Under the pieces are notes generated by a model that saw only the letters and a program-made list of their open reading frames with translations, ran no database searches and was not told the DNA's origin. DNA of 64,000 bases from a phage. Location of the stretch: sequence record OZ346151.1; one strand, 5' to 3'. The position numbers and the translations under genes are program-made. This document shows positions 2-23,200 of this stretch, in pieces (position 1 is the stretch's first letter; every line of letters begins with the position of its first letter).

Positions 2-1465
2 AACTGTGGATGTGCAAACGCAGTAGATACTTTTGCAAACAATGAGAAATTTATCCGTAGCTACGGAACAGTGGTCCTTGCAATGGACAACGATGCGGCT
101 AACGAGGTAGAGAAGCAAAAACACGTTATCAAAGGTGTTGAAGCCACACATAATATTGCAGCATTTTTGATGGCTGACAACGTTTACCACGTGGAATATC
201 CTGGCGAGGTAAACGACCCTGATGGTGTAAAAGATATCCGTGACATGCTGAAGGCTAAAAAGCTGGAAGATATTGTAAACATGTTCCGGCATCCTGTTAA
301 GTATGTGCCTGATGCTGTGTCGGATTTAGAAGACTTCTCTATCGAATCTTTGCGGAAAAAGACTTCCAACGGGGTAGATATCAGCGCAGAGTTTCCAAAA
401 CTGCAAAAAATGCTAAAAGGCTTGCACAAAGGGACACTCGTAATGCTTACAGGTCCATCAGGAGGTGGTAAAACAACTGTAGCCAAAAAACTGGAACACT
501 GTATTGCAAGATACCTAATGGACCCGACATGTCCAAAGGCCGATGACTACGAAGAGGATGATCGTCTATGCATGATTCATCTTGAGGAGGACCCAGAGGA
601 AGCAATTAACTCCTTGTATGCAAACCAGTTAGGGTTTGATGTTAAAGAGTTTGTTGAAGATCCTAGCCAGTTTTTAACTGATCAAGAACATGCAGAGATT
701 CACCAATCATGGGCAAAAGCTGGAAAAATCAAAGTGTTCAAACATTTCGGGTCTATTCCAGTGGACGAGTTGATTACCAAGCTTAAGCAAATGGTTTGCC
801 TGTACCATTGTCGCTATATTGTGCTGGATCACCTGTCTATGGTAATTTCAGGGCTTAATGTTAAAGATGAGCGAAAAGAACTGGACATGGCTATGACTCA
901 GCTGGCTGCGTTTTGTAAGCAGTTTAACGTGTTTATCTTGGTGATCGCTCACCTCAAACGTACAGAGATTGTGCCTCCTAAGGACAAGGATGGTAACCCA
1001 TTACCTTTCTGGTATCCTGTGCGAAAAGAGAATTTGCGAGGATCGGCTGGGCTTGAACAGTTGAGTTGGGTAGTCATAGGTGTCGAGGCCGAAGAAATGG
1101 TGGATCGTTCTCGTGGGCGTGTCCGTCTGGTAGGTCTTAAAAACCGTCCAGCAAAAACTTTAGGTATTGCTGACACTTTAGTTATGGACCCACATACAGG
1201 TAAGTTCCATGATGCCAGTAATTGGTACTGGGACAAAGAAATGCAGATGTTTACAGACGGAGAAGGTGGGGAGGTTGTTTGGAGACCTCAGGCCATGTTT
1301 GAGGACCAAGAGCATGCAGTTGTAGAAACACCTATGGGCAAGGTTGTAGCCGATAAGGTTGTAACTCCTACTATTAAGCCTGTTGACACGCAGGAAGACC
1401 TTCAGTACGATGATCCATCCTCTGATCCGGTCCCCGGTTTTGAGGATGATGAAACACCTTTTTAA
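2..1465 (+). CDS. primase-helicase (T7 gp4-like), 5'-partial
   Basis: Frame open from window edge (no upstream stop); Toprim-like LAMDND motif; Walker A GPSGGGKTT; DnaB-type helicase region; acidic C-terminal tail ending FEDDETPF. Confidence 0.85.
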   Translation, partial: NCGCANAVDTFANNEKFIRSYGTVVLAMDNDAANEVEKQKHVIKGVEATHNIAAFLMADNVYHVEYPGEVNDPDGVKDIRDMLKAKKLEDIVNMFRHPVKYVPDAVSDLEDFSIESLRKKTSNGVDISAEFPKLQKMLKGLHKGTLVMLTGPSGGGKTTVAKKLEHCIARYLMDPTCPKADDYEEDDRLCMIHLEEDPEEAINSLYANQLGFDVKEFVEDPSQFLTDQEHAEIHQSWAKAGKIKVFKHFGSIPVDELITKLKQMVCLYHCRYIVLDHLSMVISGLNVKDERKELDMAMTQLAAFCKQFNVFILVIAHLKRTEIVPPKDKDGNPLPFWYPVRKENLRGSAGLEQLSWVVIGVEAEEMVDRSRGRVRLVGLKNRPAKTLGIADTLVMDPHTGKFHDASNWYWDKEMQMFTDGEGGEVVWRPQAMFEDQEHAVVETPMGKVVADKVVTPTIKPVDTQEDLQYDDPSSDPVPGFEDDETPF

Positions 1466-1523
1466 TGTTTAACAAAGAGTGGGAGGGGTAGTACAACCGC
1501 CTCCCCTTTAAGGAGAACTGTAT

Positions 1524-3947
1524 ATGAGCATGTGGTCGTTCGACTTTGAGTCATCCGGTTTGCTGGAAGACCCAGATCTTTATTATCACTGCGGCCTGTT
1601 TAAAGAGCTGAATAAGAACCGTTTTATGCTGTTCCTTCCTCTAAATGACCGCACACACTACTCCGAGGAGGATATAGAAAAGGCTAAGAACTTCATTCTG
1701 GCAAAGAAAACTCTTTATAAAGATTTTGAAGTTCGCATAGCAGATTTTTCAGAGTTGGAAGGTTGGCTTACAGGAAATTCTGACTGGTCACCAACAGCTT
1801 TGAACTGCCATAACTGCTACAGTTATGACTTTATGCTGATGGAAAGATTATCTGGTATTCATTTTGATATGTTCCGTGATCCTAAGTGTATGGGGACTAT
1901 CAACGATCACCAGGTTAACCTGTTTGATACGTTGGCGATGAGCCGAATCTTGTGGCCTGATCGCCCTTTACCAAAAGGTTGTCCGGACTCTGTATTCAAC
2001 CCGGTTACTAAGAAAATGCAGCCTGTTGGTCCTCACGGCCTTATGGCATGGGGCTACGCCCTTGGTAACCAGAAAGTTCAAATTGATGACTGGCGCGATC
2101 TTCCGTTATGGAAGTATGTGGATCGTGTATTTGAGGACGTTATCATCCAGGAGCTGCTCTGGAAAGAGCTGGTAGCGGAATCAAAAGGTGTATTCTACGG
2201 CAAATCTGACATGCAGAACTTTATGTACGATCCTGCCAAAGAGAAGCCGAAAGGGTTCAAGAAGATCACCTGGAAGAACGCATTACGTCGAGGCATGTTG
2301 CAGCACTTCCTGATGGAGCTGCAGGCCCGTCAGGGTGTATACTTCGACATAGATGGGGCTATTGCTTTACGTGACCGCTGCGATGCGTGGATGAAAGAGA
2401 TCGCTGATCGTGTTGAACCACAACTGCCTTTAAAAGAGCTGTCAATGTCTCAGCGGCCCAAGTTCCCTGAAAAGCCGTTTAACCAAGATGGGACAATCTC
2501 TAATAATGGTTGGAAATGGTTAAAAGATAAGCTTGGCTATCCTGTGGACATGAGTGCTTTAGAGTTCAAAGCCCCACCTAAGCGAGCATTTACCTCTACA
2601 GGAGATGTCAGTAAGATGGGGATAAAATGGTGTGAAGAGATGGGCTGCAAAGACCACGATAAGATGGCTGATTTCTTGAGAGGTTATATTAAGGGCACCT
2701 CCACACCACAACCTTTACCTAAAGAGCTGATGGATCAGGCAATAAGCGATCTGCAACAGAAGCGAATGCCTGACTGCAAGATACCTATGAAAATCAGCAA
2801 TCAGGACGACATTAAGCGATACCTGATCAGTGCTGGTTGGCTTCCGACAATGTGGAGAACTAAGGATGTAACTAAGGACAGCAAGAAGAAAGCTCTACCT
2901 GATGCAGATGTTGATGCACGAGTATATGCATACATGGACGAGCTTTTAGAGTCAGAGTATTGTGACCTAATTATCAACTTCTGGAACAAAACTGATGCTA
3001 AGTTTCAGACAACAGTGCACAAGTTCCGAAGCTTTCCTAACTCCGAAAGGATTAAAAAGGAAGTGTTCGGGAAAATACGCAGAAAAGCCAGGGCACTTAT
3101 TACTTCTCCGCAACTGAAAGATACGTTTGGACACCTATGTCCGAATCTTGAAAAATTGAACGGAGAGATGGCTAAAGATATCGTCTTGTGGTTATCATTG
3201 CGAAACCGCAGATCGGTCCTTGATCCAATCAAGGAGGATAAGGTTGATACTGGTCTTCTTAATCACCCACGTTTGAAGATTGACCATAAGCTTCCTGCTA
3301 AAAGCTCTGGATTAACAAACACTTCCCGACAGAAACACAGTATTTGTGCAAACATGCCTAAACCATCTCCTAAAGTGGTTATGGGTAAAGAGATGCGTAG
3401 CTTGTGGGGTGTTCCTCCTGGATACTTTGAGATCGGTATTGACGGGTCCAACTTAGAGCAGCTTATCGGGGCTTGGGGTGCCTTTGAGTTCGACAACGGC
3501 TTGTACTATGATGTTGTAAGTAACGGGGACGCACACCAAAACAATGCTGAGGCATATACAAAAGTAGCAGGCAGAGAGGTGTCTCGTAACGACGGTAAAC
3601 CTATCACGTATGGGGTTATGTACGGGGCACAAAAAGATAAAGTTGCAGATATGCTGGATATCTCCCCAGAGTTGGGGCAAAGGGTGATCGATGCACTTTG
3701 GGATGCCAACCCAGGTCTTAAGGGGCGCAAAGAGGATCTGGAGAAATTCTGGGAAGCAACAGGTAAGAAGTTTATCTACTCTTTTGATGGTCATGCTATC
3801 TGGACCCGATCTAAACACTCTTTACTTAATGCATACCAACAAAATGGCGGCGCATCGTTGTGTGACTTAGTTGGGATACTCATGCACCATCAAATGGTGA
3901 AGCGTGGGTGGTACGATGAAGGTGTTCGTCGTATTATCTATTACCAT
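1524..3947 (+). CDS. DNA polymerase, family A (T7 gp5-like), exon 1
   Basis: SD AAGGAG before ATG 1524; exo motif FDFESSG; pol motif A IGIDGSNLEQ; motif B KPITYGVMYG; ORF stops right after ...IIYYH, i.e. before motif C. Confidence 0.85.
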
Positions 3948-4789
3948 AAATAACATTGTGGCTTCGTGCAGTGATGCACGTCGAAAACCTCTTTAATTGA
4001 CGGGAAGGCTAAGTTGACTTTTACACCTAAACATGGTAAAAGCTCAATATGCTAATCCGCAGCGAAGACTAAAGGGGTGTAGTTAAAATGGCTAGATCAG
4101 TTGAGTATCACGGATATACCGTGTTTGATGATGGAACAATACCTTTATCGAAACGTGATCATACAACAATGTTTTGTTTTGATAATGGTCGAGGTTACCT
4201 TTGCGTAACCATGTTCATCGAGGGGAAGCAGTGCACAAAAGGTGTCCACCACTTGGTTGCTGAATGCTTTGTATCAAACCCTGATCCTGAAAGGCTCACA
4301 TGGGTGAACCATAAGGACGGAAACAAATACAACAATGCATACTGGAACCTTGAATGGACCACCCCTGGTGGAAATATCAAACACGCTTATGATAATGACC
4401 TCAGAGTAAGGCCAGTCGGTGAGTATAATGCCAACGCTGTACTGACCGAGGATGAGGTAACGGAGATTTGCGAACTGTTACAAAGTGGTTTACGACAATG
4501 CGAGATTAGGGATCTTGGGTATCCTTATGAGACGGTCAGAGCCATAAAGCAAAGAAGACAGTGGAAACATATCTCTAAAAACTACACCTGGTAGTAACGT
4601 TCAGAGACTATCGAAAGCATAGCGCCAACATAAATTGGTGCGAAGAAGCGAGTAGAGTAGACCAGCAAGTGCGGTCGAAATGGGAGGTGCCTTGGTAACA
4701 AGGTAGTGAGATAGTCCGATCCATACAGGAAACTGTATGGCTGTGCACGTAATGGTGCGGGGTAGCTTAACGACCTACCTGAACTATTG
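3948..4789 (+). mobile_element. putative group I self-splicing intron in DNA polymerase gene, carrying HNH homing endonuclease ORF
   Basis: Exon 1 ends ...YYH after a U (3947); downstream frame resumes DEYQLQV...GRNWGDCH, restoring motif C (YHDE) and the family A C-terminus; possible P1 pairing exon CCAU with intron GUGG (3958-3961); G at 4789 precedes exon 2; boundaries +/- a few nt. Confidence 0.65.
4088..4594 (+). CDS. HNH homing endonuclease (intron-encoded)
   Basis: HNH motif ...VNHKDGNKYNNAYWNLEWTTPGGNIKH; own start and stop inside the polymerase interruption. Confidence 0.8.
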   Translation: MARSVEYHGYTVFDDGTIPLSKRDHTTMFCFDNGRGYLCVTMFIEGKQCTKGVHHLVAECFVSNPDPERLTWVNHKDGNKYNNAYWNLEWTTPGGNIKHAYDNDLRVRPVGEYNANAVLTEDEVTEICELLQSGLRQCEIRDLGYPYETVRAIKQRRQWKHISKNYTW

Positions 4790-20695: not shown

Positions 20696-20941
20696 ATGAA
20701 AAGCAATAAAGGTTATAACGGTTACAAAAACAAAACTCATTGGAATGTAAGCCTTTGGATTAATAACGATGAGTCATTGTACCGGTTGGCCCAAGGATTT
20801 ATTAACGCTAATGCTAATCGTAATGATGCGGCGCGGGATATGATGCTTTTTCTGGAGCTAACCGGACAAGATAAGACCCCGGACGGCTTCAAGTACAGCA
20901 CTACGGCGATCCGTGCCGCGATGGTTGGAATGAAACACTAA
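20696..20941 (+). CDS. hypothetical protein
   Basis: SD GAAGAGG before ATG. Confidence 0.5.
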   Translation: MKSNKGYNGYKNKTHWNVSLWINNDESLYRLAQGFINANANRNDAARDMMLFLELTGQDKTPDGFKYSTTAIRAAMVGMKH

Positions 20942-20949
20942 AAGCACAT

Positions 20950-22980
20950 AGCCGCCAGATCTCAGAATTTACGTACGCTCACCAGTCTATAGCCTGCTAA
21001 GTATTTATTCCAACCATAGAATAACGGAATAGTCAATACCTGCATAAAATAATTATTCGTGTAAACTGCATAACATAAATCGGCTAGGATGTCAACATTT
21101 TTCGTAAACAGCTCGAAATTATAACGGTGAGTTATAATAAACAGAGAAATCTTTAGTCGTCTAATGTTTACTGTACATTACTATACTGACTGGAATCATT
21201 AGATGACTAAGAGAAAGATAAGAAATCATTAACAATGCAATTGTTTTATTCGTAACAATAAGGCAACTATGCAAACGGATGGCATGGCGCGACGGAGTCG
21301 CGACATAATATAAAAGCAGTAACCATCACCCCCGTGATAGTTTGTCTGCAAACTATTAATCAGATCATAGTTGCCTTGTATTTAGTTAATCATGACATAA
21401 CAAGCAAGGCAACTATAGATCTGCTAATAGTTGCCCTGCTTTTATATTATGTCATAGATTATTAGCCTGTTAATTGTTAGTCAGTCAAATCAACAACGTT
21501 ATCATTTCAGTCTTTATTGTTGTTGATCGTTATTGTTATCATGCAAACGAATGGCATGGCTTATCATTTTTGAGTAAACAATCTATACGTGAACAGTGAG
21601 GCATGCAATAGTAAGGGCGGGAATAATGAGAGTGTAAACTGTCAAGGGTAATGTCAATTATATCAATCGTGTCAGTTATGTCACCATTATGTCAGCAGAG
21701 TTTTTCTCCTCTTTGTCAAGTGCTGCATGCCCACACAAATAGTAAGAAATATAATTGTTATGTGCGTAAACAGTAACTCATGTTATCAATCCCTGTATGT
21801 ATCGCCAGTGGTGCGCATAATGGGTATTATGTTAAATTGCCCGTAATGATAATGGTTCTCACAATGATAGGTATTCTCATTCCCCCACACAAAATAGATT
21901 GCAAATGTTGTGCCACTATGTGAACGGCCTCACCTATTAATTTGCCTCACTGCCTCGATATTTGAGAATTATCATAAGAATGAGAAGTATTCCCATTTCG
22001 TCCGCCTGGCAGCACTCCAGTCGCTACGGCTCAGAACAGGGCAGAATTGTGTCCATTCAGATATTTCTGTCTGGCTCTTCAGGTCTGTGTGGGAAAAGTC
22101 CACCTCTCTGGCGGGGCATGGGGTCATGACGGGAAAATTGCAGGTCAATTAAAAAATTTACGTGGTGTATGAAGCGCTCTTCAGGTAAGGCATGTATTAT
22201 GGGATGAAACCCTCTTCAGGCAATGATATTTGTGGGTGTGATATTTGCTGGAAAGCCAGATATGACGGGACTCCCGGCGGGGCAGGGGTAGTACAGACAG
22301 GGGAAATATGGAGGATGTGGTTAGGTGAATTGATCAGACAGGTAGAGTATGGAATATGTTACAGGTATGTTAAATAGGGCGGCTGAATATCTGTAGGATT
22401 TGTGTGTAAAATCAAAGACTTAAGTGGTGTTGTGGTATTTTCTATAAATAATTCAAGTTTAATAGGTAATATTTGTCTCTATTCGCTTTGTGTGGTAAAC
22501 AGATTCAGATGAGATTGGTTTACAAGCGTATACATAATATACAAATTAAAGATACAAGAAACCCCCCTCCCCCTTCGGCTACCATTCACCTTTTCCTCTG
22601 ACTGGTACTTAAACACTTATTCAGACTCTTCAGGTTATCACCCATATATCATATGGCAGTGACTGGTGTCCTCCGGCCCCTCTTTCGTCACCCGTCCGCT
22701 TCGCCATGCTAATGCCATAGCCAATGGTTCGGTTGTTCACCCTGTTCACTCAGGTGTATCTCCATACCCCTTCAAAACGAAGAGAACAGAAAACCCGAAT
22801 TACTCGGTAAAAGAAAAGAGAAGAACTTAATTTTATCAGGATAGGCAAGAATGTCAAGGCATGACTGCTCACTAAACAAGCAAACAGTCATGTGTGGGAG
22901 GTAAGTGATTGTGGTGGTAGGAAATTTAGTTGAAAGATGTGTTATAGGTGCTTCCAGCACTTTAGCCGGGCAGCTAATTG
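20950..22980. repeat. ~2 kb non-coding, repeat-rich zone at the convergence of the plus and minus transcription blocks
   Basis: No RBS-supported ORFs; 20-bp near-identical repeat ATGCAAACG(G/A)ATGGCATGGC at 21268 and 21540; AAGGCAACTAT/ATAGTTGCC inverted copies 21258-21440; clustered TGTCA and CTCTTCAGG repeats. Confidence 0.6.
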
Positions 22981-22984
22981 TGTG

Positions 22985-23200
22985 TCAGTCCAGCGGTTCA
23001 TCCTCTACTTCACTGAAATCAATGTTCATGGTCTCTTCCCAACCATCGATCTCAGCACAAGAGTGGAGTTCTTTAGGGTTTACTCCTAAAGCCTCAGCAA
23101 CAGAGTCTATATTTAACACCTCTGGCAGGTATGATTCATCAAATTCAAGGTAAATCAGGCCACGAGTGTTGTCAGCTCCACCAAATATTTCTATCTTCAT
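22985..23200 (-). CDS. hypothetical acidic small protein
   Basis: Strand-consistent ORF, last gene of the minus block. Confidence 0.45.
   Translation of the reverse strand: MKIEIFGGADNTRGLIYLEFDESYLPEVLNIDSVAEALGVNPKELHSCAEIDGWEETMNIDFSEVEDEPLD

Follow-up and report, generated by a model that had tools for sequence, protein, structure and literature searches.

The non-coding zone between two converging gene blocks

We analysed a 64,000-nt stretch of phage DNA (record OZ346151.1; hereafter the window) in which a block of plus-strand genes and a block of minus-strand genes run towards each other, leaving between them a zone of 2,043 nt free of open reading frames (ORFs), at positions 20942-22984. 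The last plus-strand ORF occupies 20696-20941 and the last minus-strand ORF 22985-23200; the block ends of the original prediction (20941 and 22985), made from the sequence alone, were both right. The two flanking ORFs belong to real phage protein families, phrog_871/DUF7249 on the plus side and phrog_12108 on the minus side. The DNA of the window matches 273 phage records, rV5 among them, which places the phage among the rV5-like myoviruses of E. coli, genus Vequintavirus, and the zone sequence by itself matches about 120 deposited genomes, every one of them a Vequintavirus. The same locus in rV5 lies at 103798-106277, in a 2.6-kb gap between gp158 and gp159; the rV5 genome paper draws it as a grey "non-coding" box without explanation and notes a change of skew there (Kropinski et al. 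2013, PMC3606486). The zone had been singled out as an unusually large non-coding region. It is unusual only relative to the rest of the genome; it is conserved across the whole genus and was already labelled 'non-coding' in PMC3606486. For comparison we aligned the zone of 19 phages (this one and 18 relatives), and we scanned IMG/VR and metagenomes for divergent copies, which yielded only two and five loci, respectively; among them, the locus L035 was useful.

The direct terminal repeat of related phages maps within the zone

The zone is most likely the terminal region (concatemer junction) of a chromosome with fixed ends and a short, exact direct terminal repeat (DTR), packaged in the manner of T7. 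The features that bear on this are the following:

21565-21694, plus strand: arrays of short repeats, hypervariable, first GTAAACA-type units (~15-nt period) and then (A/G)TGTCA units (~9-11-nt period)
21695-22006, no strand assigned: equivalent of the DTR, with a length of 312 bp here against 458-460 bp in all relatives
22007-22150, no strand assigned: indel-rich variable stretch outside the right DTR boundary, 51-60% identical to the relatives (85.5% to IMG4)

Three separately reported vequintaviruses (Germany, Portugal, China) carry an exact repeat at both ends of their records: Gotham (MT682716), where a 459-bp repeat_region is annotated and its two copies are identical, EdH4 (MK327930; 459 bp) and YN3 (PV763136; 458 bp). 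All three repeats start GGCGGACG... and finish ...AAAAACTTGTC, the first and last bases in EdH4 being those of Gotham and YN3. The Gotham repeat maps to 22006->21730 and 21729->21695 of the window, and the segments 21730-22006 and 21695-21729 align to the repeats of the three phages at 93-98% identity. In the relatives, the complement of 22006 is the first base of the virion DNA (GGCGGACG...), and 21695 is the last base of the repeat. Terminal redundancies of 458 bp have been published for EdH4 and HdK5 (PMC6563267), and PMC7471380 is a further literature source for the repeat. In the database, the segment is present twice in seven of the 120 records. The break points of other records fall at the same places: ECP2309 starts at the equivalent of 22006, and Pr121LW and ECP2303 start or end at the equivalent of 21695. 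The assemblies of several relatives break within the zone, and some of these breaks are assembler artefacts; that of 241Ecol014PP, considered as evidence for a terminus, is merely an assembler overlap of ~97 nt and was discarded. Likewise, the 'repeat_region' features of navn, isim and Alma were rejected as terminal repeats, being small tandem repeats instead. An exact repeat of ~0.1-0.6 kb with fixed ends, as expected of T7-type packaging, was found for the close relatives only. The original prediction had listed a packaging site among the possible functions of the zone, and this option is supported in the form of physical chromosome ends, since 21695-22006 corresponds to the DTR of the relatives, with the TGTCA run directly at its edge.

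The right boundary, ...TTTCGTCCGCC|TGGCAGC, is the same here as in the relatives. Beyond it, the first ~15 nt of the variable stretch 22007-22150 (TGGCAGCRCTCC) are conserved and are followed in the relatives by repeated CTCCTGTAGGTC-type units. The left boundary is abutted by the short-repeat arrays. Six copies of TGTCA lie at 21640-21718, packed more densely than in any other 100-nt span of the window (0.17 expected per 100 nt), and the run of (A/G)TGTCA motifs that had been pointed out is indeed present, far above chance. The array segment is 106-228 nt long in the 19 phages, with 1-6 TGTCA and 1-9 GTRAAY units per phage, and its copy number and sequence differ between phages that are otherwise ~95% identical. 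The final TGTCA is invariant and stops exactly at the DTR boundary in 19/19 phages. The phage shares with Gotham, EdH4 and YN3 homologous repeat DNA (93-98%), the right boundary, the arrays, and also the palindrome and the invariant core described below; it differs in the length of the repeat (312 versus 458-460 bp) and in the sequence at the left boundary (GCAGAG versus GACAAG). The "non-coding" box of rV5 is the same locus, to which the paper gave no function, the genome being treated there as circularly permuted.

Similar chromosome ends in KPP-1 and T7

Klebsiella phage KPP-1 (Mydovirus, Vequintavirinae) has a 514-bp DTR, classified as T7-type by PhageTerm with 2x coverage (PMC9862379). 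We located this DTR at 2817-3330 of the KPP-1 genome, in a ~1.8-kb gene-poor zone between converging blocks. The ends of the KPP-1 and Vequintavirus DTRs have in common G[GA]CGGAC[GA]G at the start and CTTGACAA.GAG.AGA..TGT at the end, and the two repeats share a 30-nt internal block (E = 4e-4) and GAATGAGAAT motifs. In both, a AGTGTAAACTGTCAAG / GTAAACTGTCAAG unit lies just outside the DTR end, and KPP-1 has a C6TTC5 run nearby. The two loci differ in that there is no overall similarity at the blastn level, the C-run of KPP-1 is inverted and much nearer to the DTR, and KPP-1 has no equivalent of the invariant core or of the skew flip. For the subfamily, the motifs common to the two genera are candidates for the sites that the terminase recognises or cuts.

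The T7 chromosome has a 160-bp terminal repeat followed by eight CCTAAAG heptamers at 175-332, with three heptamers inside the repeat and further ones ahead of its right-hand copy; over ~1.2 kb the junction carries no genes, and the promoter phiOR lies ~700 bp from the end and points to it. Pausing of RNA polymerase at the T7 junction initiates maturation (PMC3276506). The T7/T3 junction and the zone have in common a short exact repeat within a gene-free junction of ~1-2 kb, a T7-type replisome, arrays of 5-7-nt motifs with a period of ~10-15 nt that abut the repeat, with further copies inside it, and a promoter that points to the repeat from a distance of ~0.7-0.8 kb. The match between the arrays is one of analogy, not homology. 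The two junctions have no homologous sequence, this phage is a myovirus of 137 kb with a predicted host sigma70 promoter rather than a phage-polymerase promoter, and its flanking genes converge whereas the T7 early genes leave from the left end. As for the gene content of the window (71-3953 and 35291-60626 being the coordinates cited for both blocks), the plus block encodes a gp4-like DnaB helicase and a family A DNA polymerase, that is, a T7-type replisome, and the minus block a ClpP-like protease, NrdD, class I ribonucleotide reductase subunits, a DNA ligase and an RNA ligase.

Left part of the zone: paired repeats and a palindrome

To the left of the arrays, we found the following features:

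20942-21252, no strand assigned: conserved AT-rich spacer after the last plus-strand gene, conservation 0.88-0.99 across the 19 phages
21153-21166 / 21197-21210, in the AT-rich spacer: 14-bp inverted repeat TTAGTCGTCTAATG / CATTAGATGACTAA, hairpin z -2.9 (modest)
21269-21288 and 21541-21560, plus strand: two copies of the 20-mer ATGCAAACGRATGGCATGGC, which bracket the palindrome and the mosaic segment
21302-21453, no strand assigned: extended palindrome of ~150 nt, fold -78 kcal/mol
21455-21535, no strand assigned: mosaic variable segment, conservation 0.47-0.61

Both copies of the 20-mer are real (0.00 expected) and conserved in the relatives; the positions given for them by the original prediction, 21268 and 21540, are one base off. 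The repeat GGCAACTAT occurs at 21262(+), 21367(-), 21408(+) and 21427(-), with five copies in the window against 0.47 expected; the copies in both orientations proposed for 21258-21440 correspond to these four, at 21262-21435, and they exceed chance. The palindrome has a perfect outer stem of 18 bp (21302-21319 / 21436-21453) and an inner hairpin at 21321-21342; its long inner arms hold three of the four GGCAACTAT half-sites, the fourth lying just outside at 21262. It is the sole strong structure signal in the zone, with z-scores of -4.4 to -7.3 on both strands in a sliding scan. Terminator-like hits fall on the palindrome, and the Alma record annotates a terminator there; it is probably a bidirectional terminator or a cruciform. 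The authors of the rV5 study expected a bidirectional terminator at this locus and put the skew changes down to the direction of transcription (PMC3606486). Three phages, rV5, A135 and LL12, have 33 additional nt at ~21397, inserted precisely into the apical loop of the palindrome. As to the neighbouring mosaic segment 21455-21535, most relatives have it swapped for three consecutive GC-rich hairpins, CACCCGAAGGGGTG, GTGACCAAAGGTCAC and CTGGCATAGCCAG, which form a small mosaic cassette.

The original prediction described these repeats as iteron-like, a reading that did not hold up: the arrays vary in copy number and sequence among near-identical phages, and the GGCAACTAT copies are arms of the palindrome. 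Compared with an iteron-based origin, the arrays have short cores (5-7 nt) with a period of 9-15 nt and are hypervariable, the 20-mer has only two copies, 272 nt apart, the flanking genes are small and have no assigned function, and the AT-rich trough described below is ~700 nt away from the arrays.

Right part of the zone: skew flip and invariant core

Between the variable stretch and the last minus-strand gene, we found the following features:

22151-22450, plus strand: conserved G-rich, C-poor stretch, 93-97% identical even to the divergent IMG5
22400-22561, no strand assigned: AT-rich trough with a GC content of 0.28, 47.9% identical in L035
22562-22573, plus strand: C6TC5 run at the left edge of the core, read in a minus-strand RNA as G5AG6 followed by a U-rich tail
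22562-22925, minus strand: near-invariant non-coding core of ~360 nt, with ~5 changes in 360 nt even where the flanking genes are 63-86% identical
22857-22830, minus strand: predicted consensus sigma70 promoter, TTGACA-16-TGnTAAAAT, matching 11/12 positions plus the TG
22860-22892, minus strand: conserved hairpin CATGACTG...CAGTCATG, between the last minus-strand gene and the promoter

Within the 64 kb, GC skew peaks in the G-rich stretch, reaching +0.59 over 200 nt in the region 22231-22560. At ~22520, across the AT-rich trough, the skew then flips more sharply than anywhere else in the window (0.91), and the sign of this flip is that of convergence rather than divergence. The motif CTCTTCAGG occurs seven times against 0.52 expected, always on the plus strand (22075, 22177, 22212, 22626, 23274, 39504 and 47801); four of the seven copies lie within 560 nt to the right of the repeat, and those at 22177 and 22212 are inside the G-rich stretch. 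A promoter scan and inspection revealed no convincing plus-strand promoter for 22151-22450.

From ~22151 to ~22925, 3-6% of the alignment columns are variable, against 12-60% in the neighbouring genes. In the IMG5 lineage, the same region keeps 93-98% identity, while the genes are at 63-83% and the DTR at 83%. The L035 locus narrows the core to ~22562-22925, with a sharp left edge at which the adjoining AT-rich DNA drops to 48% identity. The C6TC5 run that marks this edge is present in every vequintavirus locus and occurs once in the 64 kb (0.02 expected). The predicted promoter has its -35 hexamer at 22857-22852, its -10 hexamer at 22835-22830 and its start at ~22826-22821, and it is directed toward the DTR. 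In IMGVR5, both hexamers and the TG are kept, whereas the spacer has eight substitutions and a 2-nt insertion and the discriminator is altered; conserved hexamers with a free spacer are the pattern expected of a working promoter, and the conservation of the promoter suggests that a transcript is made. On the minus strand, 22830-22979 folds with z-scores of -3.7 to -3.9. The core has no host homologue, as no E. coli genome matches it, and a host origin was excluded on this ground. Our literature searches found nothing relevant on vequintavirus transcriptomics.

Coding capacity and RNA searches

The zone is genuinely non-coding by three tests, namely the lengths of indels, the breakage of ORFs and the distribution of changes over codon positions. 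The longest complete ORF has 80 aa, which is the chance level (80.6 +/- 19.8 in shuffled sequence), and the original statement that the zone has only short ORFs was correct. In the 19 aligned phages, indel lengths leave remainders of 1, 2 and 0 upon division by three in 46, 26 and 20 cases, without any bias toward multiples of three. Most of the ORFs are disrupted in the relatives, the 80-aa ORF being intact in 2/18 and a 61-aa ORF in 0/18. Those short ORFs that persist sit in near-invariant DNA and show no bias toward the third codon position (e.g. 4/4/3), in contrast to the flanking genes (6/2/22 and 14/10/60). An 18-aa ORF preceded by a Shine-Dalgarno-like sequence in the invariant core was rejected: ev147 and A51.2 have lost its start codon, and WM has a 1-nt deletion. 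The original prediction had named annotated protein-coding genes in the homologous regions of relatives as evidence that would count against it. Curated records leave the zone empty; automatic annotation of PMBT16, Mangalyan and NHEP1 places 11-15 'hypothetical protein' coding sequences (CDSs) of 30-60 aa there, which are discordant between the records and fail the coding tests.

We then considered untranslated RNAs, with Rfam at two thresholds, a tRNA search, hand-picked folds, a sliding z-score scan of both strands, and a consensus fold (alifold) with pair counting. ARAGORN detected no tRNA gene, in agreement with the original inspection of the zone. Rfam gave no match at the gathering threshold and, at E up to 10, only spurious hairpin-type miRNA rows. 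The fold of the core has no excess stability over shuffled sequences (z -1.1 and -0.1), and alifold with pair counts found no compensatory covariation in it, most changes in the predicted pairs breaking them. A structured RNA would be expected to score on one strand; in the scan, the palindrome alone scores, on both strands. Of the untranslated RNAs that had been suggested, no tRNA, Rfam family or supported structure was found, but the conserved promoter does suggest a transcript. We also compared the locus with the pseudo-ToxI locus of PhiTE, an rV5-like Pectobacterium phage, which is likewise a non-coding repeat locus and specifies a known non-coding RNA. Its map coordinate is similar, but its neighbours are tRNAs and terminase genes, all within a block of one direction, so that an equivalence of position was rejected; its repeat unit is 36 nt long against 9-15 nt here, and the only tandem array in the zone has a period of 9, not one of ~36 nt.

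Interpretation of the zone as the probable chromosome junction

With the zone as the terminal region of a fixed-end phage, both gene blocks would run into it because the chromosome ends meet here in a circularised or collapsed assembly, and 21695-22006 would be the repeat itself, collapsed to a single copy. The terminase would nick concatemers at two fixed boundaries, TGTCA|G... and ...GTCCGCC|TGG, and 3' extension would duplicate the repeat and leave one copy at each virion end. Fixed-position nicks followed by a 3' extension that doubles the repeat are the generic DTR mechanism (PMC5557969), whose application to this phage we infer from homology. Of the three further roles that we propose, the one we hold with the most confidence is that the arrays at the boundary act like the short-repeat arrays of T7; they could be binding or positioning sites for end formation, or slippage-prone by-products of it. 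With less confidence, we suggest that the 150-nt palindrome halts converging transcription short of the ends. Most tentatively, the core and its sigma70 promoter might drive transcription toward and across the junction, as phiOR does in T7, and be needed in cis for replication or maturation.

Several points weigh against this interpretation. This phage alone lacks 147 nt between 21729 and 21730; the piece is present in 18/18 aligned relatives, and the deletion is found in none of the 120 records. Because of it the repeat would be 312 bp, and it could be a natural variant of repeat length or an assembly error. The left boundary reads TGTCA|GCAGAG here and TGTCA|GACAAG in 18/18 relatives. Both the length of the repeat and the cut site of this phage are thus extrapolated from its relatives, and the repeat accounts for 312 of the 2,043 nt of the zone only. 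The roles given to the arrays, the palindrome and the invariant core are drawn by analogy. FV3, moreover, lacks 21328-21608 (281 nt); if this deletion is real, the palindrome is dispensable, although it may be a cloning or assembly artefact. Finally, rV5 was called circularly permuted on the basis of 3.6x Sanger reads and a circular assembly, with no end mapping, and bov10K2 and BpE1AUH were called circularly permuted or headful by PhageTerm.

These last reports speak for headful packaging of circularly permuted DNA, under which the zone would be a buffer for converging transcription, possibly with a pac site; the palindrome and the terminator-like hairpins would suit such a buffer. We consider this very unlikely. 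Exact repeats of 458-459 bp with identical boundaries occur in three separately reported phages, and KPP-1, of a different genus, was called DTR/T7-type with 2x coverage. PhageTerm, for its part, is blind to termini in libraries made with transposase (PMC5557969), and the statements of circular permutation for vequintaviruses, including that drawn from the low-coverage assembly of rV5, rest on weaker evidence. A replication origin in the zone, in place of or in addition to the chromosome ends, is unlikely too, albeit less so. It could be iteron-based (arrays, 20-mers and GGCAACTAT) or primed by transcription (promoter at 22857, G-rich transcript, G5AG6 and AT-rich region). The repeats are far above chance, the AT-rich trough of GC 0.28 coincides with the sharpest skew flip of the window, and the conserved promoter lies upstream of a unique G-run. 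Secondary origins of T7 are situated at phiOL and phiOR, in a comparable zone. At mitochondrial CSB II, the replication primer forms at a G-run located downstream of a promoter (PMC3488243); CSB II and the phage locus have in common a promoter, a G-run (G5-6AG7-8 in CSB II, with an R-loop primer; G5AG6 and a U-rich tail here), AT-rich DNA and a T7-like replisome. This is pure resemblance, involving another polymerase, and the G-run of the phage lies ~0.55 kb from the chromosome end. Phages with ~95% identity, furthermore, differ widely in the unit number and sequence of the arrays, which sets these apart from iterons matched to an initiator; the zone has no adjacent initiator gene, the skew flip has the sign of convergence and is credited by the rV5 authors to the direction of transcription, and the C-run of KPP-1 is in the opposite orientation.

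Other explanations concern the product of the zone rather than its place in the chromosome. The core might encode a trans-acting non-coding RNA, read from the minus strand, that would start at ~22823, extend at least to the G-run at ~22565 and measure ~260 nt or more; we consider this about as improbable as an origin. The promoter with its conserved hexamers and free spacer would fit, as would an invariance that spans the promoter region to G5AG6 and the U-rich tail and ends sharply on the left in L035; the core is constrained 5-10 times more tightly than the genes beside it, and the ORFs here fail the coding tests, with the start of the 18-aa ORF lost in two phages. The absence of an Rfam match, of a fold better than shuffled sequence and of compensatory covariation, with predicted pairs mostly broken by changes, argues against such an RNA, as does the lack of a canonical terminator. 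The invariance also extends over 70 nt upstream of the promoter, for which an RNA product would not account. Junction transcription of the phiOR kind, a transcription-primed origin like CSB II and a trans-acting RNA are all possible roles of the core, by analogy. A more speculative proposal, which we regard as distinctly improbable, is that the core acts in cis and depends on transcription, as an element of a type that has not been described for myoviruses: a G-rich RNA, started at the host sigma70 promoter and directed to the chromosome end, would stall or terminate at G5AG6, beside the AT-rich DNA, and form an R-loop or a hybrid G-quadruplex, which would prime the T7-type replisome as a CSB II-like origin, with a PIF1-like helicase resolving it, or mark the junction for the terminase in the way that polymerase pausing does in T7. 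A PIF1-like helicase is encoded by rV5 (PMC3606486). We give next to no credence to the remaining explanation, that frameshifts or sequencing errors conceal protein-coding genes in the zone. The tiny hypothetical CDSs annotated in PMBT16, Mangalyan and NHEP1 and the persistence of some short ORFs in most relatives could be read in its favour, but the longest ORF is of chance length, the indels are not multiples of three, the persistent ORFs lie in invariant DNA without the third-position bias of the control genes, and curated records are empty here.

The junction at the centre of our interpretation is mostly known biology for this group, as both the "non-coding" box and the 458-459-bp repeats have been published. 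What is added here is the explicit tie between the two, the arrays abutting the boundary and the end motifs shared across genera, the 147-nt variant of repeat length, and the sharply delimited, invariant promoter/G-run element. A 13-year-old "non-coding" box is accounted for in the type phage of a subfamily widely used for biocontrol and therapy of E. coli O157. In practice, vequintavirus genomes should be opened at the repeat and not at arbitrary points, and the 11-15 "hypothetical proteins" that some pipelines place in the zone are spurious. Exact candidate cut sites and cis elements become available for engineering or rebooting these phages, and one tightly constrained non-coding element, the promoter with its G-run, is isolated, whose function is directly testable.

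Zone border and database records

DNA homology to all relatives starts at 20948, 7 nt past the stop codon of the last plus-strand gene. This gene (20696-20941) encodes 81 aa that cover only positions 8-86 of the 140 of the phrog_871/DUF7249 profile; its rV5 counterpart is the 139-aa gp159, with ~340 nt more of spacer. The edge 20696-20948 resembles a mosaic joint, or a gene cut short at the border of the zone.

About 19 records named 'Campylobacter phage' (MG0656xx) are vequintaviruses, as both their sequences and the taxonomy lines they carry show. A135, the record that we inspected, bears the mark UNVERIFIED, and those listed all lack annotation. They are probably coliphages carried along in those preparations.

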